From Terriglobia bacterium (GTDB lineage: Bacteria > Acidobacteriota > Terriglobia > 20CM-2-55-15), in assembly GCA_965198225.1 (NCBI GenBank), contig CBDAOY010000006.1:224001-288000 (forward strand): a DNA stretch of 64,000 nt, in the 5' to 3' direction. Below, piece by piece: positions 11,516-64,000 of this stretch. The translations under genes were made by a program, and so were the position numbers. The notes beneath the pieces are model-generated. The model searched no databases. It had not been told where the DNA came from and saw nothing but the letters and a program-made list of their open reading frames with translations. How positions within the stretch are numbered: the first letter of the stretch is position 1; every line of letters begins with the position of its first letter.

Positions 11516-11788
11516 CAACCCGTGGCAGAACTCTACAGGGCCGCGTTGCGGCCAAACGGGGCCGGATTCGAGGAGGCGAGGACGAAACAATGCTCATTCA
11601 TTGGGAGGAGTCGACGACAACGAAGACGGCCCCGTTTCGCCGTAACCCGAAGGGCGCAGGGGGGTTCGGGCCGCAGGCTTTGTCCATCGTCGGTCACGAT
11701 GAATGATCATCGCTCCGCTCCTCGCTTCGCGCCTGCAACCCGAAGACCCCTGCGCGCGACCCTGCAGAGTTCTGCCACGGGCTGCTAG
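11512..11788. mobile_element. MITE-like 277-bp foldback element, type-A ends
   Basis: YTAG-CARCCCGTGGCAGAACTCT...AGAGTTCTGCCACGGGCTG-CTAG terminal inverted repeats; no coding capacity. Confidence 0.85.
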
Positions 11789-17727: not shown

Positions 17728-17730
17728 TCT

Positions 17731-17845
17731 GTAGGTGCGGTCTATGACCGCACTATCTTCTGCAGCGAGAACACTTCCAGTCTAGACATTTCTGCTCAGC
17801 CCACACCCGGGGCTCGAAGAATGTGCGGTCATAGACCGCACCTAC
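17731..17845. repeat. REPIN-like doublet: two inverted GTAG REPs with a 69-bp spacer
   Basis: 17731-17753 and its exact reverse complement 17823-17845, between convergent genes. Confidence 0.85.
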
Positions 17846-17847
17846 AC

Positions 17848-29384: not shown

Positions 29385-29485
29385 GCTCCGATGACAAAGT
29401 ATTCAATATAACCATGGAAGGGACAGAAATCAGAAAATTGTGGCGTTCAAAGCGACGGGGCGGCTATGTTGAACAATCGGCGTGT

Positions 29486-29761
29486 CTAGCAGCCCGTGGC
29501 AGAAGGCTGATGGTTCGCGCGCACGGGTCTTGCGAGGCGGAGACGAGGCGCGAGGAGGAACTGATGCGGTTTCATCATGACGACGAGCAACAAAGTATCC
29601 GACCGCAACCCCCGTGCGCCCGGAGGGTTACGGCGGCGTCACACCATCTGCGTTGTTGCCGCACCTCAACGATGTACCAGCATCGCCGTTGGCGCGGCGC
29701 CTAACATCTGGCGCAACGCCGCCGTAACGCGAGCCATCAGCCTTCTGCCACGGGCTGTTTG
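29486..29761. mobile_element. MITE-like 276-bp foldback element, type-A ends
   Basis: CTAGCAGCCCGTGGCAGAAGGCTGATGG ... CCATCAGCCTTCTGCCACGGGCTG. Confidence 0.85.
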
Positions 29762-29781
29762 AGCCCGGCGGAGAAGAAGCT

Positions 29782-32589: not shown

Positions 32590-32691
32590 AAAGCCACGGA
32601 TTACACAGATTGCACGGATAGGAAGAAGCCTGTGGTCTCCTGTCCGAAAGACCCACTCCTAATCCGCTAAATCCGTGTAATCCGTGGCTTT
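32590..32691. repeat. Nonamer foldback between convergent efp and nrfA
   Basis: aagccacggattacacagatt ... aatccgtgtaatccgtggctt. Confidence 0.75.
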
Positions 32692-44871: not shown

Positions 44872-45146
44872 CTAGTGACCTGCAACAGTGCTATCGGTAC
44901 CAGCGTTCGGCTGAACGGCGTCGGATTCTAGGAGTGACCCCCGAGCCAATGCTGTTTCATTGCGAGGGCGTTACGACACCGAAGACGGCGCCGTTCCGCC
45001 GAACCCTTCGGGCCGATGGGGGTTGCGGGCGATCTCTTTGTCGGAAGCCGTCACCGATGAAAGAGCATCGCTTTCCGTCTCCCTCCTCGACCTCGCCCGC
45101 AAGACCCATCGGCGATGGTGCCGATAGCACTGTTACAGGCCACTAG
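44872..45146 (+). mobile_element. MITE-like 275-bp foldback element, type-B ends (left copy)
   Basis: CTAG-TGACCTGCAACAGTGCTATCGG ... CCGATAGCACTGTTACAGGCCA-CTAG. Confidence 0.88.
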
Positions 45147-45181: not shown

Positions 45182-46711
45182 ATGATTCTTGGCAAACGGT
45201 GCGGGCGCTTGCTCCTTCTAACAATGCTGCTTGCCCTCGTTCTATCCGGGGCGGGTTCCGAAGCGATCGCCCTCACCGGCGCGACGGCCATGGCGCAGAC
45301 GGTTTCCGACGATGCAGGGGAAGCTCCCGCGGAGCCCGTGGGAGGCGGACACGTAGATCCCTTCGCTTTCATCATGCTCGAATTCGGACTGCTTATCGCC
45401 TTTGCGATGGGCGGCCGGTGGGTCGCCGGGCGATTGAATCAGGCTCCGGTCCTCGGCGAATTGCTGACCGGCGTCGTCGTCGGAAACGTCGGCTACTGGC
45501 TCGGCATACCCCTGTTCATCCTCGTCATGAACCTCGGTAGCGCCGGAGACTTGTTCGAACAGGTATGGGCTACAGGTCAATCGATCGCCGAAGCGGCTCC
45601 TCAGGTGTTTTCCGAAACAGAAATGGCCCTCGGCGGTAGGGGTCAGGAACTCATGGGCATTCTCAGCGGCTCCGAAGGAGGCAACCTGGTCCTGATGGGA
45701 ACCGCCTTGTGGATCTTCTCGAGCCTCGGCGTGATCATACTGCTGTTCTGTGTCGGCCTGGAATCGAGTGTCGCGGAAATGCTGCAAGTGGGACCGCGTG
45801 CGTTGATGGTCGCGACGTTGGGCATCATCGGCCCCTTTTTCCTGGGACTACTCGCAAGCACCTGGTTGCTTCCCGACGCCGGCATGCCGACCCACCTGTT
45901 CCTCGCGGCGACGTTGTGCGCCACCAGCGTCGGCATCACTGCGAGGGTTTTCAAGGATCTGAACAAGCTTCAAACGGGCGAAGCGAAGGTCATCCTGGGA
46001 GCAGCCGTGATCGACGACGTGCTGGGGCTGATCATTCTCGCCGTCGTCGTCGGCATAGTCGCGACCGGTCAATTCGATCCGTCGGCCCTCACGAGGATCA
46101 CGACACTCTCCCTCTTATTCCTGGGTTCGGTGATCTTCTTCGGCGAAAGGCTGATGCGACGCCTGGTCCGCGGGGTAAAGTACCTCGACCGGCCCCACGG
46201 CAAGCTCCTTTTCCCTCTCGTCGTCGCCTTCCTGATGTCCTGGCTCGCCAACATGATCGAACTCGCGGCCATCGTCGGCGCTTTTGCTGCCGGGCTTATC
46301 CTCAGCGACGAACACTTTGGGGACGAGTGGAATCCCTCCGCCCCATCGATGCAGGAGCTGATCGGACCCCTCGAAGCGATCTTCGCTCCAATCTTTTTCG
46401 TGATGATGGGTATGCAGGTCAACCTGGAGTCCTTCCTCGATACGAGCACACTGGTGCTGGCTTTCGTCCTGACCGTGGCCGCGGTCGTCGGAAAGGCCAT
46501 TGCGGGAACCGTGGCGGGGGCAAAGATGGACCGACTCTCGATCGGGCTCGGCATGGTCCCGAGAGGCGAAGTCGGGCTCATTTTCGCGAGCATCGGGAAG
46601 GGTCTCGGCGTCGTGACGGACCACGTGTTCTCGGCCCTGGTCGTCATGGTCATCGTAACGACGCTGATCACGCCGCCGGCATTGAGATGGTCCCTGTTCC
46701 GGGAGCGCTAG
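45182..46711 (+). CDS. Cation:proton antiporter (CPA2, NapA-like)
   Basis: LLF.VGLE, ATSVGITARV, GAAVIDDVLG, IVGAFAAG, GMVPRGEVG. Confidence 0.92.
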   Translation: MILGKRCGRLLLLTMLLALVLSGAGSEAIALTGATAMAQTVSDDAGEAPAEPVGGGHVDPFAFIMLEFGLLIAFAMGGRWVAGRLNQAPVLGELLTGVVVGNVGYWLGIPLFILVMNLGSAGDLFEQVWATGQSIAEAAPQVFSETEMALGGRGQELMGILSGSEGGNLVLMGTALWIFSSLGVIILLFCVGLESSVAEMLQVGPRALMVATLGIIGPFFLGLLASTWLLPDAGMPTHLFLAATLCATSVGITARVFKDLNKLQTGEAKVILGAAVIDDVLGLIILAVVVGIVATGQFDPSALTRITTLSLLFLGSVIFFGERLMRRLVRGVKYLDRPHGKLLFPLVVAFLMSWLANMIELAAIVGAFAAGLILSDEHFGDEWNPSAPSMQELIGPLEAIFAPIFFVMMGMQVNLESFLDTSTLVLAFVLTVAAVVGKAIAGTVAGAKMDRLSIGLGMVPRGEVGLIFASIGKGLGVVTDHVFSALVVMVIVTTLITPPALRWSLFRER

Positions 46712-46982
46712 TGACCTGTAACGGTGCTATCGGTACCAGCGTTCGGCGGAACGGCGTCGGATTCTAGGAGTGACGCTCGAGCCAATGCTGTTTCATTGCG
46801 AGGGCGTTACGACACCGAAGACGGCGCCGTTCCGCCGAACCCTTCGGGCCGATGGGGGTTGCGGGCGATCTCTTTGTCGGAAGCCGTCACCGATGAATGA
46901 GCATCGCTTTCCGTCTCCCTCCTCGACCTCGCCCGCAAGACCCATCGGCGATGGTACCGATAGCACTGCTACAGGCCACTGA
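46708..46982 (+). mobile_element. MITE-like 275-bp foldback element, type-B ends (right copy)
   Basis: Direct repeat of 44872-45146 with about ten mismatches by eye; its CTAG contains the antiporter stop. Confidence 0.88.
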
Positions 46983-47392: not shown

Positions 47393-48466
47393 ATGGAATC
47401 CATGGGCAACGACAACCCACCCCCGAGTAGGACAGCCCGAATGTTCAAGGCTGTCGGGTATGCCACAGCGCTGCTGACACTGGCCTTCGGCGTGTCGCGT
47501 GTCTGGATCGCGGTCGCCGACTATGGCGAGCGGCAGCGGCAGGTCGAGGAACTACTGGCGACGGCGGAGGTGCAACTGATCGGCGCGGACTATCCGGACG
47601 CCTGGGAGAGCGTGAGCGCGGCCGACGCCATCCAACCGTCCGACCGCGTGCGCATGCGGCTCGAAGACGTGGCGATGGTCTGGCTTCGTGACCTGCGCGT
47701 GCCATCGGGCCAAACCTTCAGCGATGTCGTTTCCCCCCTGCTGCCGGTCGTCACGCGCGGCGTCGCCGAAAGCGAGGGGTCGCGGCAAGCTGACCTGCTG
47801 GCCCACGTGGGCTGGGCGGACTTTCAGCGCTCGCGCGACGGATTCGATTCAGACTTCGAGCGCTACTATGAGGAAGCACTCGCCATCGACCCCGGGAACC
47901 CTTTCGCCAACGCCTTCTTCGGTCACTGGATTCTCTGGCGCCACGGTTCCGCAGCCGAAGCGACGGCATACTTTGCCGCGGGCCTGGAAAGCCGTCGGGA
48001 GCAGAGCTTCATCCGGCGGCTACAGTTGGCGGGACTCACGAACGTCGGCTCGATCGAAAACGGCGTCGAGCTGGTGCGCATGGCCCTCGAGATAGCTCGC
48101 AGCGACGAATCGCCACCGGACGGTTTCGCGGAACGATCGTGGTCTTCCGTTTATCGCCGTGCCTGGAGCAACCGCCTCGAGCTGGTGCAGCAGTCGGTCC
48201 TGGATGCTGTGGCGCCCCAGGATCACGTCGCCGTTTTCGAGCGCTTCTTCGGACCCGACAGCGCCGCGTACCGTGTAAACCGGTGGGAGCGGGACCTGTG
48301 GCTCGCACATATCCTCGAGCGCGGCGGAGAAGCAGGGCGAGCGGCAACGCTATTGGGCCAGACACCGCGCACCGATGGGTCCGGGGCCGCCCTCAATTCA
48401 GCCTATCTCGAGCAGATCGACGCCGCGATGGCCCGGCTTTCCGGTGGCGTCGGAGCCATACGCTGA
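47393..48466 (+). CDS. Membrane-anchored helical-repeat (TPR-like) hypothetical protein
   Basis: 357-aa ORF, N-terminal TM, YYEEALAIDPGNPFAN TPR-like motif. Confidence 0.7.
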   Translation: MESMGNDNPPPSRTARMFKAVGYATALLTLAFGVSRVWIAVADYGERQRQVEELLATAEVQLIGADYPDAWESVSAADAIQPSDRVRMRLEDVAMVWLRDLRVPSGQTFSDVVSPLLPVVTRGVAESEGSRQADLLAHVGWADFQRSRDGFDSDFERYYEEALAIDPGNPFANAFFGHWILWRHGSAAEATAYFAAGLESRREQSFIRRLQLAGLTNVGSIENGVELVRMALEIARSDESPPDGFAERSWSSVYRRAWSNRLELVQQSVLDAVAPQDHVAVFERFFGPDSAAYRVNRWERDLWLAHILERGGEAGRAATLLGQTPRTDGSGAALNSAYLEQIDAAMARLSGGVGAIR

Positions 48467-48570
48467 CCTTGGCCGGTTTGACGCCGCTGTCGCCCTGTCG
48501 ATAGCTGGGGGGGTCGGTTGCCGGCTCCTGCCGCGTCGAAATATCTCTCGACGCAGTCTTCAAAATGTTT

Positions 48571-48765
48571 GCCAACGCTGACATGGGGCCAAGTTCTGCC
48601 AGCCGGAAGAGTCGGCCGAGGGCCTTTTGCAGGCCGCCATGCGGCAGATGAACCTGTCGGCGCGTGGCTCCCACTGGATACTCAAGGTCGCCCGGACCAT
48701 CGCCGACTTCCGGCGAGCGCGACATCGGCCTCCCCCACGTCGCCGAGGCCCTCCAGTACCGCTCC
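48571..48765 (+). pseudogene. comM: 3' remnant of ComM/YifB Mg-chelatase-like ATPase
   Basis: ANADMG/KFCQPEESAEGLLQAAMRQMNLSARGSHWILKVARTIAD/DIGLPHVAEALQYRS across small indels. Confidence 0.8.
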
Positions 48766-48877
48766 ACCGGATTCAGCCAAGGGGCTGCTCGCACAGTTTG
48801 GAGGAACGGATTCGGGGGTGTATCCTCGGTGATCAGCCACGCAAACGTTTGCCAACATTCTGTTGCAGGAGGGGGCC

Positions 48878-49945
48878 ATGACCACCAGGAGAGTCTCGTC
48901 TCGCGTGAAGAAGAAGAGTACCGCCCGTAGGCAGACCACCAAGAAAGCACCGCCTCCGGCCAAAAAGAAGCCCGCGATCCCCGATGGGGCGGCATTGAGT
49001 ACGTCACGCGCGTTCGGCCTGCCAATGCTCAAGACCATACAGAGCCTTCAACTGCACACCGAGTGGGTCTCCCAGGACGGCACCGCCGCGGTGAAGAAGG
49101 CGTTGAAGGGCAGCGGGTTTGAGCTGGTTGGCTCGCTCATAAAAGGTCCCAAATTGAGCGGGTCCCAGGGCTACGTGGTGGCCGACGACAAGAACCTGGT
49201 CGTGGCCTTCCGGGGCACCAAGACAGTCGACTTCGACGACCCAGACACTCTGGATGTCGAAGCAGGGATGGACATGGTCTCGAACGTGATCACGGACGCG
49301 ATCGCATTCCAGGAAAAGATGGACTTCGTGGACCCGAAGGCGCGATACGCAAAGCAGTATCGCAAAATCAAGATTCATAGAGGGTTTCACAGGGAGTACG
49401 GGCGACTCCAAGACGCCGTCCTGAAGCGAGTGAACGCGAAGGAGCACCGCAAGAAGACCGTGTACGTGACGGGGCACAGTTTGGGAGGGACGCTGGCTCT
49501 GCTTGCGGCATTCGATATCGCCACCCGCACGAAACGCACAGTGCACCTGTACGTGAGCGGCTGCGCGCGCGTGGGCGGGAAGGACTTCCGTAAGGCGCTG
49601 GAAAAGGTGGTCCCGAATACCTGTCGGTTGACGGTGAACAAGGACCCGGTGCCGCGCGTGCCGCCTGGTTGGGCGTACGACTACACGCACGCCGGACGGC
49701 TCGTCCAGCTGTATCCGAACGGCGTGCAGGTGCCGCTGAACAAGATCAACGGCAAGCTCAACATAAAGCTGCGCTCATGGGAACTAGACCTGTTGAAGAT
49801 CAAGTCTGAATTCAAGTATCACGGCCGCGACGTATACAAAAAGGCCATCGACGCGCTGGTGAAGAAGGGAGCGGACAAGACTTACTTCACGACCAAGGGG
49901 GTGTCGCCAAGCAAGGCGGCGAACCGAGAGCGAGCCACCACCTAG
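48878..49945 (+). CDS. Lipase class 3 family protein with basic N-terminal tail
   Basis: VVAFRGT, IHRGF, VTGHSLGG, DPVPRVP, Y.HAG; GGAGG SD. Confidence 0.88.
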   Translation: MTTRRVSSRVKKKSTARRQTTKKAPPPAKKKPAIPDGAALSTSRAFGLPMLKTIQSLQLHTEWVSQDGTAAVKKALKGSGFELVGSLIKGPKLSGSQGYVVADDKNLVVAFRGTKTVDFDDPDTLDVEAGMDMVSNVITDAIAFQEKMDFVDPKARYAKQYRKIKIHRGFHREYGRLQDAVLKRVNAKEHRKKTVYVTGHSLGGTLALLAAFDIATRTKRTVHLYVSGCARVGGKDFRKALEKVVPNTCRLTVNKDPVPRVPPGWAYDYTHAGRLVQLYPNGVQVPLNKINGKLNIKLRSWELDLLKIKSEFKYHGRDVYKKAIDALVKKGADKTYFTTKGVSPSKAANRERATT

Positions 49946-49964
49946 CTGGGAGTGGGAGGCGAAC

Positions 49965-51269
49965 ATGACGAGCCGAAAGGTAGGGAAGGCAGCCAGGGAG
50001 AAGTCGACCGAGCGCCCGTACAACGTTCTGGCTATCGGGGATTCGGTGATGTGGGGGCAGGGCCACCTTGCGAAGGACACGTTCGCCGAGAAGGTGGCGA
50101 AGTACATTCAGGAGGACGCCGGCAAGCGCTCCGTGCAGGTGGCGAACCTGGCGCATTCCGGAGCGGTGATCGGGACTACGCGGGCCGAGAGCGCCTCGGC
50201 GCAGCCGTATCTGTATGGAGAGCTGCCTCGAACGTATCCCGACCTGTACACCCAGCTCCGAGCGTCGAAGTTTCAGTACAGATCCAGTGACACGCTCCCG
50301 AAGACCTACCTCACGGCACAGAGCTTCGACTCGACGCGTCAGTCGACGCACAAGAAGCGGATGAAGAAGACTCTGGATGCGATGAACTCGGGCGACCCGG
50401 ACCTGATCCTGCTGGACGGGGGCATCAACGACCTGGGCGCCACCCAGATTCTCAACCCCCTGGACCAGGACAAGAACGAAATCGACTTACCCGATTCGCT
50501 GCGGGACGTGCGGCGATTCGTGGCGGATTGGCGGCATGAGCCGAAGCAGTTCGAGCGGGAGATCAAGCAGTTCTGCTACGAGCGCATGCGAAGGTTGCTG
50601 GTGGCGGTACACAGGGCGCATCCCACGAGCAAGATGGTGGTGACGGGATATTACCCGATCTTCACGAAGGGATCGGCGCTCGGTGCGGTGGGCGGCGGCG
50701 GGACCCTGGCGGCGATGCTGCTGGTCCTGATGCGCAGGCCGAGACCTCTCAGGGTGGCGACTCTGACGGCGCTCACGGCCGCATACGCACTTTTGTCGAA
50801 ACTGGTTATCGAGCGGAACGACTACTGGTATAAACGCTCACGGCACTGGCTGGACGAGGCGGTGGATAACGCGAACGAGTCCATCGGGAGTCGGGCCTGC
50901 TTCTTCGCGCAGCCCAGGTTCGGGAAGGATAACGGCGGGTTCGCGAAGAAGTCGTACCTGTACGAGTTCACGCTCTCGTCGAAGTTTCCGAAGAAGAAGT
51001 CCGACCTGGAGAAGTGGGTAAAGGTGTCGGACCCTCAGAAGCGCTATCGCAAGACGGCCTGGGATAAGTTCTATAACTCGCGTAGCCACGATGGCGACAA
51101 GTCCGACGGCTCCAAGTTCAGCGATTACAGGGCATCGATCGCACATCCGAACGACGCCGGTGTACAGGAATACACACGCGCCATCATGAGCGTGATCCGA
51201 GGTAATTCGCGGGCGTTCGGGCTGAGGTTGGTTATGTTTCAGAGTTTCTGCAAAAAGGTCCTGAAATAG
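49965..51269 (+). CDS. SGNH/GDSL hydrolase family protein (C-terminus runs into IS end)
   Basis: IGDSVMWGQG, AHSGA, LDGGIND, VTGYY, HPN blocks. Confidence 0.82.
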   Translation: MTSRKVGKAAREKSTERPYNVLAIGDSVMWGQGHLAKDTFAEKVAKYIQEDAGKRSVQVANLAHSGAVIGTTRAESASAQPYLYGELPRTYPDLYTQLRASKFQYRSSDTLPKTYLTAQSFDSTRQSTHKKRMKKTLDAMNSGDPDLILLDGGINDLGATQILNPLDQDKNEIDLPDSLRDVRRFVADWRHEPKQFEREIKQFCYERMRRLLVAVHRAHPTSKMVVTGYYPIFTKGSALGAVGGGGTLAAMLLVLMRRPRPLRVATLTALTAAYALLSKLVIERNDYWYKRSRHWLDEAVDNANESIGSRACFFAQPRFGKDNGGFAKKSYLYEFTLSSKFPKKKSDLEKWVKVSDPQKRYRKTAWDKFYNSRSHDGDKSDGSKFSDYRASIAHPNDAGVQEYTRAIMSVIRGNSRAFGLRLVMFQSFCKKVLK

Positions 51270-52852
51270 GAAAGGGCCAGGGTATCTCCGAAAAGTTGGT
51301 AACGAATCAACTTTGAAACGAAGGAGATGAACCGATGGCCCGACCTCAGATTAAGCGAAAGGGAGTGGATTGGAAAGAACTGTTAGGAGAGGAAAAGGAT
51401 TTGCTGAAAAGCGTCGTACAGGAGGTGGTTCAAGAGATTCTCGAGGCGGAGATGGACCAGGTCGTGGGCGCGGTCAAGAGTGAACGAACAGGGGGTCGCA
51501 CCGGATATCGGAGTGGCTATTACGGACGGGACCTGGTCACACGGGTGGGCAAGCTGGAGTTGCGCGTGCCGCAGGACCGGGCCGGCCGGTTCAGTACGGA
51601 GGTGTTTGAACGCTACCAACGCAGCGAGAAAGCCTTGGTGGCCAGCTTGGCCGAGATGTACGTGCAGGGCGTGTCAACGCGCAAGGTGAAAGCCATCACC
51701 GAAGAACTATGCGGACATTCGTTTTCGGCCAGCACGATCAGCCGGATTAATCAGACTCTGGACAAGGAGCTGAAAAAGTTTGCAACGCGACGATTGGAGG
51801 AAGAATACCCGTACCTAATTTTGGATGCGCGCTACGAGAAGGTGCGCGAAGACGGGGTCATCCGGAGCCGGGCGGTGCTGGTCGCGATCGGAATCAACTG
51901 GGACGGCCGGCGCGGTGTGTTGGCGGTGGAGCTGGCGGGACGGGAAAGCACGACCAGTTGGCGGCAACTGCTGCTGAGTTTAAAACAACGCGGCCTGTGC
52001 GGGGTGGAGTTCGTGGTGACCGACGATCATCCGGGGTTGAAGAAAGCCATCGCGGAAGTCCTGACCGAAGCGATCTGGCAGCGCTGCTACGTGCACTTTC
52101 TCCGAAACGCATTGGATTATCTGCCGCGCAAAGGCGATGACGATTGCCTCCAGGAACTGCGTTGGCTCTACGATCGGCGGAACCTCCAGGAAGCGCGGCA
52201 GGACCTCGCGGCGTGGTTGAGCAAGTGGGGGCAGAAATATCCCAAACTCTGCGACTGGGTCGAAGACAACATCGACGAGACGCTGAGCTTCTACACGCTG
52301 CCGCTTCAGCATCACAAGCACATGAAATCCACCAATATGCTGGAACGGCTCAACGAAGAGATCAAGCGGCGAACGCGTGTGGTGCGGATATTCCCCAACG
52401 CGGCCAGCTGTCTGCGTTTGATTCGGGCACTGACCACCGAGATGCACGAGAACTGGATCGAAGCGATCCGTTATTTGAACATGGATCTGTTGAAGGAACA
52501 CAAGAAGGACTGGCACCGTCAGACGCCTGCCGCGTGAACGCGTCAAAACGGACCGACCCAAGGATCGGCTCGGAAGCCGATCGTCGATTACAGCGCATCC
52601 TGGAGCGAGGAATCTCTGTGGAAAACTTTCAAAGGGCGAAAGAAAGAGAACCAAAAAAGAAAGAAAGGCAGAGGCCTGATGGAAATGACGCCTCAGAGGA
52701 AATCCGCAACAAGACGCGGATTCCCTCTGAGGCTTGGAAAAGCTTCGCCAAGAACGTTCAGCTTTCCCACATTCCCACAGGCCCGACGGCGATCAACACT
52801 CAAGAACTGACTTTTTCGGAAATACTTTTTGCAGAACTTGACGCACACAACT
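51230..52852 (+). mobile_element. IS256-family insertion sequence
   Basis: Imperfect ~27-bp TIRs (..TTCTGCAAAAA / TTTTTGCAGAA..) around the transposase; no TSD found. Confidence 0.85.
51335..52537 (+). CDS. IS256-family transposase
   Basis: LRVPQDR.G.F, MYVQGVSTRKV, LDARYEKVR, WQRCYVHF.RN, TNMLERLNEEIKRRT. Confidence 0.95.
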   Translation: MARPQIKRKGVDWKELLGEEKDLLKSVVQEVVQEILEAEMDQVVGAVKSERTGGRTGYRSGYYGRDLVTRVGKLELRVPQDRAGRFSTEVFERYQRSEKALVASLAEMYVQGVSTRKVKAITEELCGHSFSASTISRINQTLDKELKKFATRRLEEEYPYLILDARYEKVREDGVIRSRAVLVAIGINWDGRRGVLAVELAGRESTTSWRQLLLSLKQRGLCGVEFVVTDDHPGLKKAIAEVLTEAIWQRCYVHFLRNALDYLPRKGDDDCLQELRWLYDRRNLQEARQDLAAWLSKWGQKYPKLCDWVEDNIDETLSFYTLPLQHHKHMKSTNMLERLNEEIKRRTRVVRIFPNAASCLRLIRALTTEMHENWIEAIRYLNMDLLKEHKKDWHRQTPAA

Positions 52853-53349: not shown

Positions 53350-53577
53350 CTATGCGAATGTCAGGCGGCCGCGAGGCTGAGGGATGTCTCGGCCGAGTTC
53401 CTTGGCGGTCTCGATCCACTCGCCGATTACGACTTCCGCCTGAGCGAGGGCTTCCTGATAGGTCTGGCCATCCGCGGCGCATCCAGGGAGTTCAGGCACT
53501 TCAGCGATGAAAGCGTTATCGTCGTCGCTCCAGTAGATGATGATCTCGTAGCGGTACTTACTCTTCACTGGGATCAC
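53350..53577 (-). CDS. hicB: HicB-family antitoxin
   Basis: YEIIIYWS.DD.AFIAEVPELPGC.ADG.T..EAL...WIETA...GR.IP.P. Confidence 0.92.
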   Translation of the reverse strand: MIPVKSKYRYEIIIYWSDDDNAFIAEVPELPGCAADGQTYQEALAQAEVVIGEWIETAKELGRDIPQPRGRLTFA

Positions 53578-53821
53578 CTCCGAGTCGGTACTTCAGGATA
53601 ACATCCCTGACCTGCTTTACCTGGTAGGGCTTTGCGTTCCGCCCACGGGGTTGCAGATTGAGAATCTCGCTCACTCCTTCCCGCGTAAATATATGGTGAT
53701 CCCCACGAATTCGTTTTTGGAATTCCAGGCGTTCCAAGACCCTACACAGCTCGCCGAAGTCGATTCCGGCGTCTGAAGTGCCCCGAAGGATTCGATCCAA
53801 CGCCTTCCGGAACGAGGTCAT
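53558..53821 (-). CDS. hicA: HicA-family toxin
   Basis: RIRGDHHIFTREG..EILNLQP...AKPYQVKQVR; overlaps hicB. Confidence 0.9.
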   Translation of the reverse strand: MTSFRKALDRILRGTSDAGIDFGELCRVLERLEFQKRIRGDHHIFTREGVSEILNLQPRGRNAKPYQVKQVRDVILKYRLGGDPSEE

Positions 53822-54021: not shown

Positions 54022-56745
54022 CTAATTGTCCGTCGGAACCAGACGCTTCAACTCTTCGAAGAAGTTCAGGACGAGGATCACGGAGGTCGCGGCGGTTTCG
54101 GTGTCGACTGGTCGGGTCGTCAGGAAGCTCTGGTCGTCCAGTGCGACGTCGTACACTCTCGGCCTACCCCCACTGTAGAAAATGCCCGGCATCCGGAACA
54201 GGGGCGTGACAGAGCCAAGCTCGAACGAGTTCTCCGTTGTCGAGAACGTCGCCACCGCGATCTCATTCGTGGCACGGTTCCGGAAGAACAACTCCCGCCC
54301 GTTATGCGCCCAGACGGGTTCGACACCACCGCCGTTTGAAATCGGCCACTTCCCATCGTTGACGTTCGGGAACGGCCGCACGAAGACCTCATTACGGCCC
54401 GTCTCGTTGGACACGTACGCCAGCCAGCGGCCGTCCCGCGAGACTGCGGGGTACGCCTCAAAAAACCTGTCGCTCACGACCAGCGGCTCCGCTTCGCCGT
54501 CCTCGCCGGGTCGCAGCCCGATGATGTCTGAGGTGGGGTGTTCGGGTGGGGCGGGGTTCCTGCGGACCACCAGCCACCCGTCCGGGCTCCAGACACCCTC
54601 CCCACTCGGGGAGTCCGAGTCTCCGTAGACCAACTCGGCCTCCGCCGTGCCGTTGGCCGGCCGCTGCCACACGCGATAAAATTGGCCGGGACCGACAGAA
54701 TTCGAGTTCCCCCGCCTCGACGCGAACGTGATCTCCCGGCCATCGGGCGTCCAGGCCGGGAGCTGTTCCAGAGCATCATCGAAGGTGAGACGGGACATCG
54801 GGCCATCCGGCAGTACCTTGGTCCAGATGTCCACATTCCCGTCCGTTTCGTTCGTGAACACCACCCGGCCGCCATCCGGAGACAGCCGCAGTCCATTGTG
54901 CTGCCCCTCATTTGTCCAACGGAGCGTTTCGCCCGGGCTGACCGGGCTCGCCTCACCCGAACGGGTCACCCACACGAACTCGCGCACGCCAGAAACCCCG
55001 CCCGCAGCATAGACGAGACTGCCGTCCTCCGACACGGCAAAGGCCATGTCACCGAAGAGGCCGATCGTCAGGCCGTCCACAACAGGAACGGCATTCCCTG
55101 TGAACGCCGCACGCGCCACATCGAACGGCGCGGCCATGAGCTGCCCGTCCGGGGTACCGAACAGCAAGTGCCCTGACGCCGCGTAACGCGCCCATCCTCC
55201 CGGTTTCAGCATCTTCCGCTCGCCCGTCTCCAGGTCCATCGACCAAATGGCTGCGTCACTGCTGGATGAATCGCGCAGCACTGTATGCAGCAAGACCTTC
55301 CCACCGGGCATGGGATGGGGGACGTGGGCGAGGTCTCCCTCCGAACGCTGGGTCACCGTTTCGATCTCGCCGCCGGTATCCGGCACGCGGCTGATGGCGA
55401 AGTCCAGGCCCATGAAGTAGAGCCATCCATCGTCGGACCAGGACGCAGTGCGAGCATTTTCTGCCAGTGTCCGGCCCGGTCCCCCGGCAACCGGCACCAC
55501 CCGCAGCGGGCCCGGATTGCCCTGGACGAACGCCACTTCTCTCCCGTCCGGTGAAACCGCAAAGACAGCGCCTCCTCCGACTCCTGCAGTTCCCGGAATC
55601 GGCCGTGCCTCCAGTCCGTTCCAGTTCCGCATCCACAGCTGCGACCCTCCGCTCGTCTCTGCAGGACCCACATAGATGAGAGCCGAACCATCCCGGGTCA
55701 GCTCAAGCCAGCCGGTCGGGGTCTGCCCGTCCTGGAACGGCGTATCGAATCGGGCGATCGAACGCAAAGGTTCGGTCACAGGACGAAGCAGCGACCAACT
55801 GGCGACGACGGCGAACATCGCGGCTAAGACCGTCATCGCGACCGTCAGCCGATTCCAGCGCCCCACCTCCGGTGTCGAGGCCGACAGCTCGCCGCCCGTG
55901 TCGAACGCGCCTTCCAGGGCCAGCCGCATGTCGGCCATGTCGGAGACCCGCTGCTTCGGCTCTCTCTCGAGGCACCGCGTGAGAAACACACGGAGCGTGG
56001 GCGACAGATCGGACGGCAGTGCCTTCCAGGGGACCTCCCCCCGTAGCACCGCTGCCAGAGTGAGCGACACATCTTCGGCCTCGAAGGCACGTTGTCCAGT
56101 GAACATTTCGTAGACCACGCACCCGAAAGCCCAGATGTCGGTGCGCTTGTCGACCGCCTTCCCCCGGGCTTGCTCGGGGCTCATGTAGGCAGCGGTTCCG
56201 AGGATGATCCCCTGCTGCGTCGCCGCCAGGCTCAGCGTGGGAGATTGCGACAAGCTCTCATCCGTCCCATCGCCCGCAAATGCCTTCGCCAACCCGAAGT
56301 CCAGCACCTTCACTTTGCCGTCGGGAGTGACCTTGATGTTGGCGGGTTTCAGGTCCCGGTGGATCACTCCTTTTTCATGGGCCGCTTCGAGAGCCTCGGC
56401 GATCTGGAGTGCGAGCTGGAGGGATTCTTCGACAGGGATCGCACCACGCTTGAGCCGGTCGGCCAGGGTGTCGCCTTCTACGAGTTCGAGGACCAGGAAC
56501 CGCGTGCCTTCGTGTTCCTCTAGGCCGTGGATGGTTGCGATGTTCGGATGGTTCAGGGACGCCAGCAGCTTTGCTTCACGCTCAAACCGGGCCAGCCGTT
56601 CTTCATCTTTGGCGAATTCCTCGGGTAGAGTCTTGATCGCAACCTGCCGCCCCAGCTTCGAGTCCTGCGCCAGCCATACCGATCCCATGCCGCCCTGCCC
56701 GAGCTTGTCGGTGATCTCGTAGTGGCCCAGAGTCTTCCCGATCAT
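54022..56745 (-). CDS. Ser/Thr protein kinase-TM-TolB/PD40-like beta-propeller (array copy 1, intact)
   Basis: GQGGMG, VAIK, HRDLKPAN, DFGLAK, YMSPEQ; TM; repeated SPDG/W.PDG blades. Confidence 0.95.
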   Translation of the reverse strand: MIGKTLGHYEITDKLGQGGMGSVWLAQDSKLGRQVAIKTLPEEFAKDEERLARFEREAKLLASLNHPNIATIHGLEEHEGTRFLVLELVEGDTLADRLKRGAIPVEESLQLALQIAEALEAAHEKGVIHRDLKPANIKVTPDGKVKVLDFGLAKAFAGDGTDESLSQSPTLSLAATQQGIILGTAAYMSPEQARGKAVDKRTDIWAFGCVVYEMFTGQRAFEAEDVSLTLAAVLRGEVPWKALPSDLSPTLRVFLTRCLEREPKQRVSDMADMRLALEGAFDTGGELSASTPEVGRWNRLTVAMTVLAAMFAVVASWSLLRPVTEPLRSIARFDTPFQDGQTPTGWLELTRDGSALIYVGPAETSGGSQLWMRNWNGLEARPIPGTAGVGGGAVFAVSPDGREVAFVQGNPGPLRVVPVAGGPGRTLAENARTASWSDDGWLYFMGLDFAISRVPDTGGEIETVTQRSEGDLAHVPHPMPGGKVLLHTVLRDSSSSDAAIWSMDLETGERKMLKPGGWARYAASGHLLFGTPDGQLMAAPFDVARAAFTGNAVPVVDGLTIGLFGDMAFAVSEDGSLVYAAGGVSGVREFVWVTRSGEASPVSPGETLRWTNEGQHNGLRLSPDGGRVVFTNETDGNVDIWTKVLPDGPMSRLTFDDALEQLPAWTPDGREITFASRRGNSNSVGPGQFYRVWQRPANGTAEAELVYGDSDSPSGEGVWSPDGWLVVRRNPAPPEHPTSDIIGLRPGEDGEAEPLVVSDRFFEAYPAVSRDGRWLAYVSNETGRNEVFVRPFPNVNDGKWPISNGGGVEPVWAHNGRELFFRNRATNEIAVATFSTTENSFELGSVTPLFRMPGIFYSGGRPRVYDVALDDQSFLTTRPVDTETAATSVILVLNFFEELKRLVPTDN

Positions 56746-59463
56746 GGCACCGGTACCCGTTCCTTGAGTTCTTCGAAGAAGTTCTCGACCACGATGACCT
56801 CGGTCGCGGCCGCCTCGCCCTCGCCCTCGTAGGGGCGGACCATCAGGAACCGCTGATCATCTGACGTGATATCGTAGAAGTTGTCGCCCCGGTTCACGTA
56901 GTATTCCGCCGGTACGGTGAACAGCGTCTCCTGCGCCAGCACCTGCCCCGAGCCTGCATCGAACTGGGCAGCCACCAGCCCACGGTCCTCGTCCACGAAG
57001 AACAGCTCACGCCCGCTGTGCGCCCAGAGCGGCCCGAGCCCCCCGTCCCTCGAGATCCGCACCCTGGCCGAGTTCACATCGGGGAGCGGACGCAGGAACA
57101 CCTCGCGGCGGCCCGTTTCGTCGGAACTGTACGCCAGCCATCTCTCGTCCGGCGACAATGCCGGTTCACCCTCGGCAAACTCCGGTGTCGCCACCAGCGG
57201 TATGGCCGCGCTGTCCTCGCCCGGACGGAAAGCCAGGATGTCGCGCAGGCCCAGACCTACAGCCTCGTTTGCCGCGGCGCGGAGCACGAGCCACTCGCCA
57301 TCGGGACTCCACGACCCTTGGGCGAAGGGCCGCTCTTCGTCGAGCACCAGCACCGCTTCTCCCGTTCCGTCAGCACTCTTAGACCATACGTTCCTGTCAC
57401 CCACGGGACCCGAGAAGTACGTCACGGTCTGACCATCGGGCGTCCAGAATGGCCTGAAGTCCTCATCCTCGGCGAACGTGAGCCGCTCCAGCGGACCGTC
57501 GGGCAGGTGCTTGATCCAGATGTCCTGGTTGCGCTCAACCACGGTGGCGAACGCCATCCGCGTCCCGTCCGGTGAAAGCCTCGGCCCGGAGAAGTTAGAC
57601 CTACCGAATGACCATCCGCGATCGACGGATGTCGCCTGGCCCGAGCGCGTTACCCAGACGAACTCGGAGTCGCCGCTCCCACCGCCAGCCTGATACACAA
57701 GCGTGCTGTCGTCCGACAGCGCGAGGTGGACCGAACCGAGGGAGCGCACACCTACACCCTCGGCCAGCGCCACTGGGTCTCCCGCCAGCTGCAGCGCGTC
57801 CTGGTCGAACGAAGCGGCCAGGAGCCTCCCGTCCGCCGTCACGTTGACCAGATGCCCCGACGCTGCGTAGCGGGCGAACACGCCGCGCACGAGGACCTCG
57901 TGCTCCCCGGTCTCCATGTCCGCCACCGCGATGTCGTACTGGCTAAGGTCGCCAATGGGCTCGTGGGCCACCGTGAACAGCACGCCGCGACCGTTGGGGA
58001 GCGCCTGCGGCCAGAGGTGACCCGTCTCGTTTTGTGCTGTGTCGAGCACGGTGAACGGCTCCACCTCGCCGCTCGCCTCCGGCACGCGGAAAAGAGCACT
58101 CCCCCCAGGAGCCGAGAAGTAGATGTAGCCGTCGGGACCCCAGGCGAGCCCCGCAAGTCCAACGCCGCTCTCCACGATCGCCAACGGGGGCCCACCGCTC
58201 AGTGAGACCGCGCGGACCCCGCCACCTGCGTAGAAGGCCACCCTCCGGCCGTCGGCAGAGAAGACGGGGTTCAGCGCTCCTTCGGAGCCCGCGATGGGCG
58301 TCGCCTGGAGTTGATCACGTCGGCGTAGCCAGAGCTGTCGGCCCTGTTCCCCCGGACCCACGTAGACCATCCGAGTCCCGTCCGGTGAGACTGCGACGTT
58401 CGAGCCGAAGCCGTCGCCCCGCTGAGTGACAGGTAACTCGATGCTGTAGCGGCTGACGGGCCTCGCTTCCGGGGCCGAGGGACGGAGGAGCGCCAAGGCG
58501 AGGGTCCCCGCCAGGACGGCGGCGACTGCCGCTAACGCAACCGAGAGCCGGTTCCACCCACCGACGCCCGCAGGGACTCCAGTCCCATCGGCGGTCCCAT
58601 GTCTGGACCCCGGATCAGCCAGTACTTTCTGAATATCCACCCGGACGTCCGCGATGTCGTGGTACCTGTCCTTGGCCTCCTTCTCCAGGCAACGTTCAAG
58701 GAGCAGCCGAATGCGCGGATGCAGGTTCGGTGGCAGGCTTTTCCAGTCCGGTTCTCTCGCAAGCACCCAGGCGAGAACGTCGGACGCAGTGGGGCCTTCA
58801 TAGACTTGCCGCCCGGTCAGCACCTCGAACAAGACGCATCCGAACGCCCAAATATCCGCACGCTTGTCGACTTCCTGCCCTCTCGCCTGCTCCGGGGACA
58901 TGTACGCGGCGGTTCCGAGGATGATCCCCTGCTGCGTCGCCGCCATGCTCAACGTTGGTGAGTTTGAGAGGCTGGCATCGGCACCGTCCCCTATGAATGC
59001 CTTTGCTAACCCGAAGTCCAGCACCTTCACGTTGCCGTCCGGCGTGACCTTGATGTTCGCAGGCTTCAGAATCCCGATGGATGACACCCTTCTCGTGTGC
59101 GGCTTCTAACGCCTCGGCAATCTGCAGGGCGAGTTTGAGGGATTCTTCGACCGGGATGGCACCACGCTTCAGCCGATCCGCCAGCGTGTCGCCTTCGACC
59201 AGTTCCAAGACGAGGAAACGGGTGCCTTCGTGTTCTTCGAGGCCGTGGATCGTGGCGATATTCGGGTGGTTCAACGAAGCAAGCAGTTTCGCTTCGCGTT
59301 CAAACCGGGCAAGGCGCTCTTCGTCCTTGGCGAACTCCTCGGGAAGCGTCTTGATAGCCACCTGCCGGCCCAACTTCACATCCTGCGCCAGCCACACGGA
59401 TCCCATACCGCCCTGGCCGAGCTTGTCGGTGATCTCGTAGTGGCCGAGCGTCTTGCCGATCAT
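56742..59463 (-). pseudogene. Ser/Thr kinase-beta-propeller (array copy 2), +1 frameshift in HRDLK
   Basis: Extra base at 59070/59071 (CGG GAT T CTG AAG); span 2722 = 3n+1; could be a sequencing error. Confidence 0.8.
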
Positions 59464-61902
59464 GGCACCGGCACCCGTTCCTTCAGTTCTTCGAACCAGT
59501 TGAGGACGATGTTGATTTGGGGCCGTGCGGATTCCGAGGTTTCGGTTTGGTCCGCAGGTATGATGACCACGAATTGTTCCCCATCAGGCATGATGTCGTA
59601 GCTTCGGTAAGTGCCGAATGCCAGGAACCCCTGGATAGGAAGCGCCTGCTCGTTCGTGACTGTGACGGCACCGTTAGTTGAAACGTCGATGCCAATTATT
59701 CTCCGTGCCCCAGCCCCAGCCTGGAAAACCCGTCGGTAAAACAACTCACTTCCGTCTGGCGACCAGAGCGGAAACACCCCGCCGTTCTGTGTGAGCTGAT
59801 ATTTCACACCTGTCGCCGGAACTGGCTGGACGTAAACTTGGTTGGGCCCACTTTCGCTGGAATAGTACGCCAGCCAGTTCCCGTCAGGGGAGAACACCGA
59901 ACCGGCCGGGAGGGAACCGGGCATGGAGTAAAACACTTCCGGTGCGGCCTCACCATCTAGCGATAACGTCCAGATCTCCCTTTCTCCGTCGCTACCAATC
60001 GCCTGAAAGGAAAGAGTGCGTCCATCCGGTGACCAGGACTCCGGCCAATGCCGGACACCTTCTTCGGCATTCGTTAAGGGTTCGGCGACCCCGCTTCCAT
60101 CTGCGGATTGCCACCAAATGCCCGTGGTTCCATCTCTGTCTGAGGCGAAGGTCAAGCGTTCACCATCAGGCGTCCATATGGGTCGGCTGTTGGTGCCTTC
60201 CCTCGTTAGCTGCCGAATAGCTGAGTTACCAGACAGATCGTAAACCCAGACTTGCCCCTCGCCTTCAGGTGTCTGTACCGCAAGCTGCGTTCCATCCGGC
60301 GAAATGCGGGGCGTCAAATATTGAGCGGGCGGGACGTTGAGCGGTTCCACGCCGCCGTTACGGTCTGCCAATGTGAGAGTACCGTTGGCAGTTGATGTGC
60401 CCGCCCCGACAACGTAAACAAGCGAACCATCGGTAGAGAAACTGAAATGTCCCGTGCCGGTTTGGGCTCCTGGTGCTCTTGCCATACCCTCCACAATCGA
60501 AACCGGTCCACCCGTCACTTCCAGACTCGCCAAATCAAACGGAACTGCGAACAGTCCATCCTCAAGCGCATAGGCGAGATGTCCGGTCGGCACGTAGCGG
60601 GCGTCGCTGCCGCCGCTCAGCAACTCTTTCTGCTCGCCCGTGTCCAGTGACTGCACCACAATCTGTGCTTCGTCCCAACGACCGAGCCCTGTTGCGCTTG
60701 TCAGTGTGAACAGCACCGATTTCCCATCCGGCAATGCTTGTGGTCCATGGACTTGCCCTTCCTCGTTCAATACGAGCGTTTCTGGAGTTCCACCGTTGGC
60801 CGAAACCCACATGACGCCGCCGGGTTCACCCCACACGATCATGTCGTCCTCACTCCAACTCACCCCGAAAGGATTGGTCGCCACATCGCATAGCTTCACA
60901 GGTGCTCCGCCGCTGATGGCAATCGTCTTCAACTGTTGGTCCGTCTGGGACCAGTAGCCAACCGACTGACCATCCGGCGAGAAGAACGGGTTGGTCGGGG
61001 TTTCATCAGTCCCCGGTATGGGATGCGCTTCCAACTCGTCCATCGAACGCAAGTACAGTTGCGTGTTGGCAACATAGACGATGTTGGACCCATCGGGGGA
61101 TACCGCTACAAGAGGACGGCCTGCGTTTGTGAAATCCTGATCGCCGGGTAGCACATGGGAGAACCGGCTGATGGGACGGGGTTCGGGCGGTTTCAGGTAC
61201 CAGCCTGCCACCCCAGCGACGATTACGCTGAGAACGACCGCAAGTGCGATCCATCGCAGTATCGGTCTCGGCGGTGCCTGAATGACATCGGCAACCGGCT
61301 GGACCAGCAGACCTTTGGATCGCTCAACGACTGTTCAATCTCAATCCGCACATCCCCAGCAGCCTGCCACCGGTCCTTCGGTTCCTTGTTCAGACACCGT
61401 CGGAGTAGATGCTGAATACTCGGGTGCAGGCTCGTCTGCAATGCCGTGTACTCAGGGTCGCGGGCAAGAACGGATGCCATCACATCCGACACCAATTCAC
61501 CCTGGAACGCTTGCCGCCCGGTCAGCATCTCGAACAGAACGCAGCCGAATGCCCAAATGTCCGCCCGTTTGTCCACTGGCACACCACGTGCTTGCTCTGG
61601 ACTCATGTAAGCCGCGGTGCCGAGAATGATCCCTTGCTGCGTTGCCGCCAGACTCAATGTCGGCGACTGCGACAAGTTCACATCAGCGCCATCTCCGGCG
61701 AATGCTTTGGCCAGCCCGAAGTCCAGCACCTTGACTTTGCCGTCGGGTGTGACCTTGATATTGGCGGGCTTTAGGTCTCGATGAATCACACCCTTCTCAT
61801 GGGCTGCTTCAAGAGCCTCGGCAATCTGGAGTGCGAGCTTCAGGGATTCTTCGACGGGTATAGCCCCACGCCTCAACCGATCGGCCAGCGTGTCGCCTTC
61901 AA

Positions 61903-62722
61903 CTAGGGCGTGTTAACACTAATGAGCATGAATGTTTTATAATCAGGCATGGAGATCACACAGGAGCAGTATTGTCGCATCGAGCCGGAACTGCCGCGTC
62001 AGCGGGGCAACGTCAGTCTTTCGAACCTGACGGTCTTGAACGCCATTTTGTATGTGGCTGAGCAGGGCTGCAAGTGGCGCGGTCTGCCCAAGCGCTTTGG
62101 CAACTGGCACACCATCTACACCCGGATGAACCGCTGGTCCAAGAACGGGGTGCTCGACGCCGTCTTCGAAAAACTCCAGCGCGAGCAACTGGTGCGCATC
62201 CGGGTGGAAGCCGTTTCGATGGACTCGACCATTGTGAAGGTGCATCCCGACGGCACAGGAGCGTTAAAAAAAACGGTCCGCAAGCGATCGGCAAATCCCG
62301 CGGTGGATGGACCACCAAGATTCATCTGGTTGCCGCGAATGCTCGAACGGCGATAACGTTTGCGCTCTCGCCCGGCCAAGCGCACGACGCCCCGCAGGGC
62401 CGCGAGCTGCTCGCCGGCCTGGGGCCGTTGCCCGCGCCGCTGCCGCTGCTGATGGACCGTGCCTACCAGGACGACCAGACCCGCCAATTGGCTCTGGATT
62501 TTGGGTGGATTCCCGTCGTGCCGCCCAAGCGCAACCGCTTGGAGCCGTGGGAATACGACCGCGTTCTCTACCGCCGCAGGAACGAAGTCGAGAGGCTCTT
62601 CCGCCGACTCAAAGGTTTCCGGCGTATATTCTCCCGCTTCGATAAACTCGACGTCATGTTCCTCGCCTTCCTTCACTTCGCTCTCATCGTCGAGGCACTA
62701 CGTTAGTGTTAACACGCCCTAG
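61903..62722 (+). mobile_element. IS5-family element (IS427/IS1031-like), CTAG (or TA) target duplication included
   Basis: Perfect TIRs GGGCGTGTTAACACTAA / TTAGTGTTAACACGCCC flanked by CTAG. Confidence 0.93.
61949..62706 (+). CDS. IS5-family transposase, two ORFs joined by -1 frameshift at A8 (62266-62273)
   Basis: ORF A: GCKWRGLP..FGNWHTIY.R..RW, DSTIVKVH; ORF B: GKSRGG.TTKIH, DRAY, RNEVERLFRRLK.FRR. Confidence 0.92.
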
Positions 62723-62979
62723 TTCGAGGACGAGGAACCGCGTGCCGCTGTCTTCTTCCAAGCCGTGGATCGTGGCAATGTTCGGGTGGTTTAGCGAAGC
62801 GAGTAGCTTGGCTTCACGTTCAAACCGCGCCAACCGCTCCTCGTCCTTCGCGAACTCCTCGGGTAGAGTCTTGATCGCAACCTGCCGACCCAGCTTCGAG
62901 TCCTGCGCCAGCCACACCGATCCCATGCCTCCCTGACCGAGCTTGTCGGTGATCTCGTAGTGGCCCAGCGTCTTGCCGA

Positions 62980-64000
62980 TCATGGCACCGGCACCCGTTC
63001 CTTCAGTTCTTCGAAGAAGTTCTCGACCACGATGACCTCGGTCGCAGCCGCCTCGCCCTCGCCCTCGTAGGGGCGGACCATCAGGAACCGCTGATCATCT
63101 GACGTGATGTCGTAGAAGTTGTCGCCCGGGCTCACCTGATATCCCGCCGGTATGGTGAACAGCGTCTCCTGCGCCAGCACCTGCCCCGAGCCTGGATCGA
63201 ACTGGGCAGCCACCAGCCCACGGTCCTCATCCACGAAGAACAGCTCACGCCCGCTGTGCGCCCAGAGCGGCCCGAGCCCCCCGTCCCTCGAGACCCGCAC
63301 CCTGGCCGAGTTCACATCGGGGAGCGGACGCACGAACACCTCGTAGCTGCCTGTTTCGTTCGAACTGTACGCCAGCCATCTGCCGTCCGGCGACAATGCC
63401 GGCGCTCCCTCGGCAAACTCGGGTGTCGCCACCAGCGGTATGGCCGCGCTGTCCTCGCCCGGACGGAAAGCCAGGATGTCGCGCAGGCCAAGACCCACTG
63501 CCACGGTTGCCGCGGCGCGGAGCACGAGCCACTCCCCATCGGGACTCCACGACCCTTGGGCGAAGCCGCGCTCTTCGTCGAGCACCAGCACCGCTTCTCC
63601 CGTTCCGTCCGCACGCTTAGACCATACGGTCCCTTCGTTCAGGGGACCCGAAAAGTACGTCACGGTCTGACCATCGGGCGTCCAGAATGGCCTGATGTCA
63701 TCATCCTCGGAGAACGTGAGACGCTCCCGCGGTCCGTCGGGCAGGTGCTTGATCCAGATGTCCCGGTTGCCCTCAACCTCGGCGTTGAACGCCATCCGCG
63801 TCCCGTCCGGTGATAGCCTCGACCCGAAGTTGGTAGGGCTAACGAATGTCCATCCACGATCGACGGACGTCGCCTGGCCCGAGCGCGTTACCCAGACGAA
63901 CTCGGACTGGAGGGCCCCGCCTCCGGCCTGATACACGAGCGTGCCGTCGTCCGACAGCGCGAGGTGGACCGAACCGAGGGAGCGCACACCTACACCCTCG
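62980..64000 (-). CDS. Beta-propeller C-terminus of array copy 4 (5' part outside window)
   Basis: Near-identical to C-terminus of copy 2; ends VVENFFEELKERVPVP with ATGA overlap to copy 3; kinase domain inferred. Confidence 0.9.
   Translation of the reverse strand, partial: EGVGVRSLGSVHLALSDDGTLVYQAGGGALQSEFVWVTRSGQATSVDRGWTFVSPTNFGSRLSPDGTRMAFNAEVEGNRDIWIKHLPDGPRERLTFSEDDDIRPFWTPDGQTVTYFSGPLNEGTVWSKRADGTGEAVLVLDEERGFAQGSWSPDGEWLVLRAAATVAVGLGLRDILAFRPGEDSAAIPLVATPEFAEGAPALSPDGRWLAYSSNETGSYEVFVRPLPDVNSARVRVSRDGGLGPLWAHSGRELFFVDEDRGLVAAQFDPGSGQVLAQETLFTIPAGYQVSPGDNFYDITSDDQRFLMVRPYEGEGEAAATEVIVVENFFEELKERVPVP

Follow-up and report, generated by a model that had tools for sequence, protein, structure and literature searches.

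A tandem array of kinase-propeller genes

This analysis concerns a gene array at one end of a 64,000-nucleotide stretch of DNA from Terriglobia bacterium (contig CBDAOY010000006.1, positions 224,001 to 288,000; hereafter the window), two members of which differ in clusters of residues concentrated on one face of a double β-propeller sensor. The array takes up the last 10 kb of the window on the minus strand and comprises four head-to-tail genes whose adjoining stop and start codons overlap as ATGA; each encodes, in this order, a Ser/Thr kinase, a single hydrophobic helix and a region of PD40 repeats, as judged from open reading frames (ORFs), a Pfam scan and hydropathy. Copy 1 (54022-56745), the last gene of the array, is an intact ORF for a 907-amino-acid (aa) protein with kinase, membrane helix and double propeller, recognized by its Pkinase and PD40 matches and its catalytic motifs. 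Copy 2 (56742-59463) has the same kind of architecture, with a frameshifted kinase and an open sensor frame (frame comparison; 781-aa downstream ORF), the frameshift falling in the HRD-LKP catalytic loop at about 59070-59080. Copy 3 (59460-62983) carries a sensor of another subfamily (about 34% identical to copy 4) with an open frame of 583 aa and a broken kinase, as seen from frame comparison and ORFs; the kinase is interrupted by an insertion sequence (IS) and by a second frameshift near 61304-61316, ahead of the membrane helix. The insertion is an IS5-family element of 812 bp on the plus strand (61907-62718) with DUF4096 and DDE_Tnp_1 matches, terminal inverted repeats and CTAG on either flank. 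Copy 4 (62980-64000) is represented in the window by the 3′ third of its ORF, and the full protein is P0003, intact at 907 aa and 100% identical to the window part over 339 aa. All seven kinase motifs searched for are present in copies 1 and 4, and the kinases of copies 2 and 3 are broken. As all 15 of the housekeeping ORFs scanned in the window have an unbroken single frame and match a family strongly (14 of them above a curated cut-off), the breaks in the array genes are more likely real than assembly noise.

The ends and beginnings of these genes are well conserved. A junction repeat on the minus strand, spanning the gene end, the ATGA overlap and the start of the next kinase, occurs at 56483-56782, 59201-59500 and 62721-63020 with 85-88% identity, and the final 42 nt of copies 2, 3 and 4 are 90-95% identical despite the otherwise distant sensor of copy 3. 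The kinase start is under strong purifying selection, the first 87 codons of copies 1-3 giving a ratio of nonsynonymous to synonymous substitution rates (dN/dS) of 0.01-0.06 at dS 0.7-1.2. The G+C content at third codon positions of copy 3 (0.62 over 59463-61190) lies below that of copies 1, 2 and 4 (0.77-0.81) and of seven housekeeping genes (0.71-0.79). A hicA-hicB toxin-antitoxin pair (53350-53821) adjoins the array downstream, and a promoter scan returned one site against 1.4 expected.

Architecture of the sensor

Copies 1 and 2 each show a single hydropathy peak between kinase and sensor; in copy 2 it marks a single membrane helix at 58485-58541 on the minus strand (peak 2.56), which also appears as a helix in a second structure model whose confidence is low for both kinase and helix. 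The AlphaFold model of the copy-2 sensor has twelve blades (mean pLDDT 93, pTM 0.88). These divide into two six-bladed propellers, since structural matches cover either model residues 268-553 (TolB-like proteins) or both flanking parts (the sensor of the kinase PknD). Propeller A (57687-58454, minus strand), delimited by DSSP analysis of the model, has matches spanning model residues 8-574 with about 240 aligned residues, its last blade being closed by the first strand together with a strand near the C-terminus. Propeller B (56832-57671, minus strand), a TolB-like PD40 propeller with TolB sequence matches, aligns at residues 268-553 with the structure 2ojh (Z 26.7, rmsd 2.9, 257 aligned). The blades are unlike one another: no within-copy blastn match was found at E 1e-5, only partial matches of 30-48 nt. 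The Pfam scan found no peptidase domain, only a short helix following the last blade of the modeled chain, and domain scans of the array proteins gave no NHL match and no NACHT domain.

By the convention set out in PMC4400149, the b-c and d-a loops form the top face of a propeller, and we assigned faces by this topology from the model strands rather than from the model coordinates. Both linkers joining propellers A and B in the copy-2 model are b-c loops, that is, top-face loops, so that a single cleft lined by the two top faces is probable; among solved structures, none matched the propellers jointly (best TM 0.40). Domain scans and the model together show single-pass receptor Ser/Thr kinases with two linked propellers; the kinase would lie inside and the propellers outside the inner membrane, which would place the sensor in the periplasm. 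From propeller topology, the top faces of both propellers would be the recognition surface.

Differences between copies 2 and 4 fall on the top face

Copies 2 and 4 were compared over 339 gap-free codons (56745-57761 versus 62983-63999, minus strand). Their DNA is 92% identical here, with a longest identical run of 68 nt, and differs at 81 nucleotides, which replace 43 amino acids and leave a further 26 codons differing only silently. The original prediction, made from the letters of the window, had described eight multi-residue swaps between these copies on a nearly unchanged scaffold; all eight are present where it placed them, and they contain 33 of the 43 amino-acid differences. In copy 2 they span 56889-57677 (codon starts 57677, 57611, 57548, 57473, 57404, 57269, 57122 and 56906) and in copy 4, by sequence comparison, 63127-63915, both on the minus strand. 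The strongest is a d-a loop reading SFGRSNFSGP in copy 2 (57582-57611, minus strand) and TFVSPTNFGS in copy 4 (63820-63849), and a further one, SGD/ALQ, sits in the inter-propeller linker. The clustering exceeds chance, 33 of the 43 differences having a neighbor within 3 codons compared with 23.6 in permutations (p 0.006).

The prediction further held that the variable residues lie on the ligand side of the propellers, and this is borne out: they fall on d-a and b-c loops instead of scattering over both faces. With strands taken from the AlphaFold model, differing codons number 29 of 108 in top loops, 11 of 146 in strands and 3 of 72 in bottom loops; by halves, differing residues number 37 of 177 at the top versus 6 of 149 at the bottom (p 5e-6). 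Over the whole sensor, compared by way of P0003, the counts are 60 of 294 and 18 of 263. Silent differences adjoin the swaps, 13 of 26 lying within 2 codons of one against 6.9 expected (p 0.006), and four-fold sites differ at 14 of 85 top versus 6 of 87 bottom positions.

A pool of near-equidistant relatives and probable exchange in patches

The same face is variable among close relatives. In a ten-protein set consisting of copy 2, copy 4, P0002, P0004-P0009 and P0011 (P0008 and P0011 without their out-of-frame tails), three or more residues occur at 44 of 171 top-loop sites versus 1 of 121 bottom-loop sites, 30 of 32 indel boundaries lie on the top half, and the d-a loop of the strongest swap has ten versions, all different. 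A model-free profile, phased by the twelve a-b turns alone, has one peak 5-12 residues ahead of the turn and another 7-15 residues past it, the same two peaks as seen with the model.

All ten proteins are nearly equidistant, at 81-91% identity. At 87%, the identity between copies 2 and 4 does not exceed that of either to most of the eight other relatives (81-89%), and the two are not sisters in trees. Of the 79 columns at which the two differ, both states recur in other relatives at 36, and one state is private to one copy at 41. The claim that a recent duplication produced copies 2 and 4, which then diverged from each other, is thus poorly supported by their mutual identity, by the shared-state columns and by the clustering of silent changes. 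Because the silent differences cluster with the swaps, exchange of older patches is favored over point mutation under selection. Loop variants are, moreover, common to relatives in conflicting sets, copy 2 pairing with P0002, P0008, P0009, P0006 and P0010, each at a different loop, so that at the protein level the loop variants form a mosaic. Incompatibility among 78 informative sites rises from 0.21 at 1-5 residues apart to 0.33 at 6-15 and 0.45-0.48 beyond (PHI-like test on the ten-protein set, p 0.0005), and four null models that lack recombination reached the observed incompatibility ratio in 0/80, 0/80, 0/80 and 5/80 runs.

Truncation is frequent in this group: seven of ten close relatives (P0001, P0004-P0006, P0008, P0009 and P0011) are truncated proteins, four of which start near the kinase catalytic loop, and several come from contigs over 100 kb. 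A genome scan for the DNA of the close relatives gave nothing above 51% identity among the matches listed, and 17 plasmid records were all under 60% identity, the best, from Gemmatirosa, at 33%. For comparison, an RpoD search gave nine relatives at 95-99% identity.

Constraint and selection on the top loops

Codon tests of the main pair use window copies 2 and 4 alone. Their top loops have dN 0.166 and dS 0.177, hence a dN/dS of 0.94 (95% interval 0.46-2.1), versus 0.42 in strands and 0.33 in bottom loops. Whether the ratio exceeds 1 depends on the yardstick, as it rises to 1.38 (0.79-2.36) against the dS of all codons, 1.75 (0.94-3.5) against that of all codons outside the top loops, and 2.4 (1.14-6.8) against that of the bottom half, which represents the scaffold. 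As a control we used three syntenic ortholog pairs of the family from two Gemmatimonadales genomes (L005 and L007), one broken L005 gene being trimmed to its in-frame codons 352-890. Top loops of these pairs have a dN/dS of 0.06 at dS 0.09, a value about 15 times lower than that of copies 2 and 4, and nonsynonymous and synonymous changes in top loops stand at 36:13 in copies 2 and 4 versus 6:31 in the three pairs (p 1e-7). Since top loops are conserved between orthologs, they are not unconstrained by nature. The proposal of diversifying selection therefore holds in part: constraint on the top loops of copies 2 and 4 is far weaker than on those of orthologs, and a dN/dS above 1 is not reached by the local measure. 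On balance we infer that selection, not drift, keeps the loops diverse.

Exchange of whole propellers and sensors

Larger units also appear to have moved. P0020 is a natural chimera with propeller A of the copy-2/4 type and propeller B of the copy-3 type, broken at the inter-propeller linker; in 30-residue windows it is 70-93% identical to copy 4 through propeller A and 52-83% identical to copy 3 through propeller B. Of the 120 top-ranking relatives of the copy-2 sensor, 92 bear a kinase, which in 83 cases is less than 50% identical to that of copy 4. In the kinase tree those 83 group with Gemmatimonadota loci and the four window kinases fall on the Acidobacteriota side; the sensor tree has copies 2 and 4 nested among the Gemmatimonadota-grouping genes and copy 3, which has two named Acidobacteriota relatives, outside them (both trees come from quick searches). 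Pairwise identities flip in the same manner: copy 4 and P0010 are 42% identical in the kinase and 74% in the sensor, the change occurring at about residue 280, and copy 4 and P0131 are 76% identical in the kinase and 35% in the sensor. In an approximately unbiased (AU) test without the chimera P0020, a single topology shared by kinase and sensor was rejected (p-AU 0.0014). The conserved gene ends and kinase starts could anchor exchanges between such distant copies.

Several observations on other family members may be recorded here. P0126 joins a copy-3-type sensor to a distant kinase (42-46% kinase and 62-70% sensor identity to its neighbors) and is probably a further sensor swap, and in P0223 the same double-propeller sensor is fused to a winged-helix Trans_reg_C domain instead of a kinase. 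The copy-1 sensor (54022-55750), on long branches, likewise clusters with two Gemmatimonadota loci, L003 and L006. The two Gemmatimonadales genomes at loci L005 and L007 hold syntenic clusters of four kinases, three with propeller sensors, and L006 and L012 have two kinase-propeller genes each.

Interpretation and alternatives

We consider it probable that the array belongs to a repertoire of receptor kinases in which short-patch recombination together with selection diversifies the specificity surface, accompanied by birth and death of copies. Copies 2 and 4 would then come from a pool that counts at least ten near-equidistant variants and is mixed by recombination, in patches of some 15-40 codons or fewer. 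Scaffold stretches would stay alike while loop variants persist, spread and recombine into new surfaces, selection favoring different specificities; the same process may carry entire propellers and entire sensors from one kinase lineage to another by way of the conserved flanks, and copies would decay through frameshift and IS insertion. By analogy with PknD-type receptors, binding of a ligand to the top faces may switch the kinase on. If the sensor is periplasmic, a ligand must cross the outer membrane or arise in the envelope, which makes whole phage or predators less likely ligands than delivered proteins, peptides or wall fragments. An arms race, as originally proposed, is a hypothesis that could explain the diversity of the loops. 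A more far-reaching idea, which we regard as unlikely though worth stating, is that the family is a bacterial counterpart of the innate-immune receptor repertoires of plants and fungi: periplasmic double-propeller clamps on membrane kinases would recognize foreign proteins as these enter the envelope (toxins of competitors, entry proteins of phage or host peptides), their specificity would be rebuilt by recombination at the scale of loop patch, propeller and sensor, even across phyla, and kinase-dead copies would act as silent loop donors.

Several results weigh against a repertoire shaped by recombination and selection. The null model with clustered mutation is the one that mimicked the recombination signal, in 5/80 runs, and with 17 rows including P0020 the AU test did not reject a topology shared by kinase and sensor (p 0.45). 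The local top-loop dN/dS of 0.94 is also expected of neutral loops, and the genes of the ortholog control, three in number and distant, come from two genomes, one gene being broken and trimmed. The top bias is family-wide, appearing in 63 of the 69 disjoint pairs that share at least 70% identity and in 36 of 37 pairs at 80-93% identity, where the median top/bottom ratio is 1.85 versus 2.98 for copies 2 and 4 and only one of the 37 pairs reaches 3; because the bias is present across the family at this lower level, ordinary tolerance of change in loops may account for part of it. Copy 2, finally, combines its broken kinase with several private scaffold changes, and some of its differences may be decay.

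Could the loops then simply be drifting? Under relaxed constraint, redundant or dying copies would accumulate changes, long top loops would tolerate them best, and recombination would stir neutral variants. The near-unity local ratio, the breakage of two of the four array copies and truncation of seven of ten close relatives, and the family-wide loop bias would all fit; but the bottom loops, which are exposed too, keep a dN/dS of 0.33 and a single multi-state site among 121, top loops are conserved between orthologs, top-loop dN is 2.4-fold above scaffold dS, and both broken copies retain open sensor frames, so that we hold this explanation to be unlikely. Rather less plausible is a single recent duplication that gave rise to copies 2 and 4, followed by point mutations under diversifying selection in an arms race. 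It would account for the placement of differences on the top face, for the ratio of 2.4 against scaffold dS and for the 41 of 79 columns with a private state, yet the two copies are not sisters in trees and are equally far from other relatives, both states recur in relatives at 36 columns, and silent changes co-cluster with the swaps, including at four-fold sites (14/85 versus 6/87).

Two further explanations concern the origin of the variants themselves. Directed hypermutation by a diversity-generating retroelement or a similar system would be in keeping with the many changes at first and second codon positions, and the array does extend past the window end (base 64000), leaving upstream genes outside view. 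Adenine is nevertheless involved in only 39 of the 81 differences, 26 codons differ silently, variation covers 1.7 kb and includes loop indels, and within the window a crude scan of long frames revealed no reverse-transcriptase motif and no template copy was found; we deem this very improbable. That strain mixtures or collapsed repeats produced the mosaic and the frameshifts as assembly artefacts might be suspected from the metagenome-type assemblies and the 2.7 kb repeats, and is in our judgment scarcely credible given that all 15 scanned housekeeping ORFs are unbroken and that the swaps are in frame, biased to one face and recurrent in proteins whose contigs differ in length.

Significance

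Kinase-propeller relatives are abundant (at least 4926 and at least 5502 among 8000 candidates scored) and common in Acidobacteriota and Gemmatimonadota. The literature found describes no ligand for them, and no paper on variability in this family was found in a search whose coverage of subscription papers was poor and which left supplements out. At the level of single residues the array outlines the probable recognition surface, and it offers naturally varied versions of that surface on an unchanging scaffold, with which ligand discovery and specificity swaps become directly testable. Receptor diversification by gene conversion is known chiefly from immune receptors of eukaryotes and surface antigens of pathogens; if selection is confirmed, the array would be a bacterial case of it, on a membrane kinase. 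The membrane helix ahead of the propellers, the division into two propellers and the frameshift in the copy-2 kinase had been overlooked in the original prediction.

Other features of the window

Upstream in coordinates, a variable island (47393-52537) holds genes for a 357-aa protein that has no assigned family, a class 3 lipase, a GDSL hydrolase and an IS256-family transposase. Two 273-nt direct repeats (44872-45144 and 46708-46980), 97% identical and each carrying terminal inverted repeats that begin with CTAG, lie on either side of a cation/proton antiporter gene and resemble a composite element of the MITE (miniature inverted-repeat transposable element) kind. Short dispersed palindromic repeat families (D9, D10, D20, I1-I17) lie at 7169, 11513-11788 and 29485-29764; at 1976, 9846 and 17730-17847; and at 21894 and 32590-32691. 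PheT (3488-5506) is short at 672 aa, its match beginning at profile position 157 of 798.

Comparison with known systems

Large families of Ser/Thr kinases are familiar in Acidobacteria from Solibacter usitatus, where they have been read as devices of environmental sensing; paralogs there are less than 50% identical, a whole-gene test gave no positive selection, and propeller, WD40 and PD40 are absent from the main text of that paper (PMC3174227). The array kinase domain scores up to 294 bits on the PADLOC models of the PD-T4-6/MAD6 defense kinases, yet these matches stop at about residue 320 and the sensor has no PADLOC match, which suggests generic kinase likeness; the name PD-T4-6 does not occur in the preprint consulted. 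A diversity-generating retroelement was rejected as a class, the substitutions not being adenine-specific and the silent codons, the length of the variable span and the loop indels all standing against it.

The best structural match of propeller B is TolB (Z 24-27; at Z 25.8-26.7, rmsd 2.9 over 252-257 aligned residues), with sequence matches as well, and clusters of PD40/Tricorn_N domains, assigned by Pfam on relatives, occur in Gemmatimonadota and Acidobacteriota. The array proteins are nonetheless not TolB: they score 63-131 bits on TIGR02800 compared with a cut-off of 343, lack the TolB N-terminal domain, are fused to a kinase and have a doubled propeller, and their neighbors are paralogs and hicAB rather than a tol-pal context. 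Identity with the Tricorn or S9 peptidases was likewise rejected, as no peptidase domain follows the propellers.

In domain order the array genes resemble PknD of Mycobacterium tuberculosis, with its kinase, membrane helix and six-bladed propeller sensor, and the PknD sensor (1rwi) aligns with propeller A (Z 20.8, rmsd 2.9, 234 aligned). PknD has one NHL-repeat propeller (as reported in PMC1262709), the cup of which is described as a binding surface (in PMC3322341). The array differs in having two PD40/TolB-like propellers, a tandem arrangement and a mosaic, hypervariable top face, so that with PD40 repeats in place of an NHL match its products are PknD-like in layout and not PknD proper.

For the mode of evolution, the best analogue is found in the fungal HNWD receptors HET-D and HET-E, whose double propeller is modeled as a clamp, with hypervariable sites on the interaction surface and variants arising from recombination (according to PMC12222747). 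These are cytoplasmic NACHT proteins with blades 80-100% alike within one gene, and the array proteins, having no NACHT domain and no such blade identity, were not assigned to the HNWD or NLR (NOD-like receptor) class. The array receptors, by contrast, combine a membrane kinase with dissimilar blades and exchange between gene copies.

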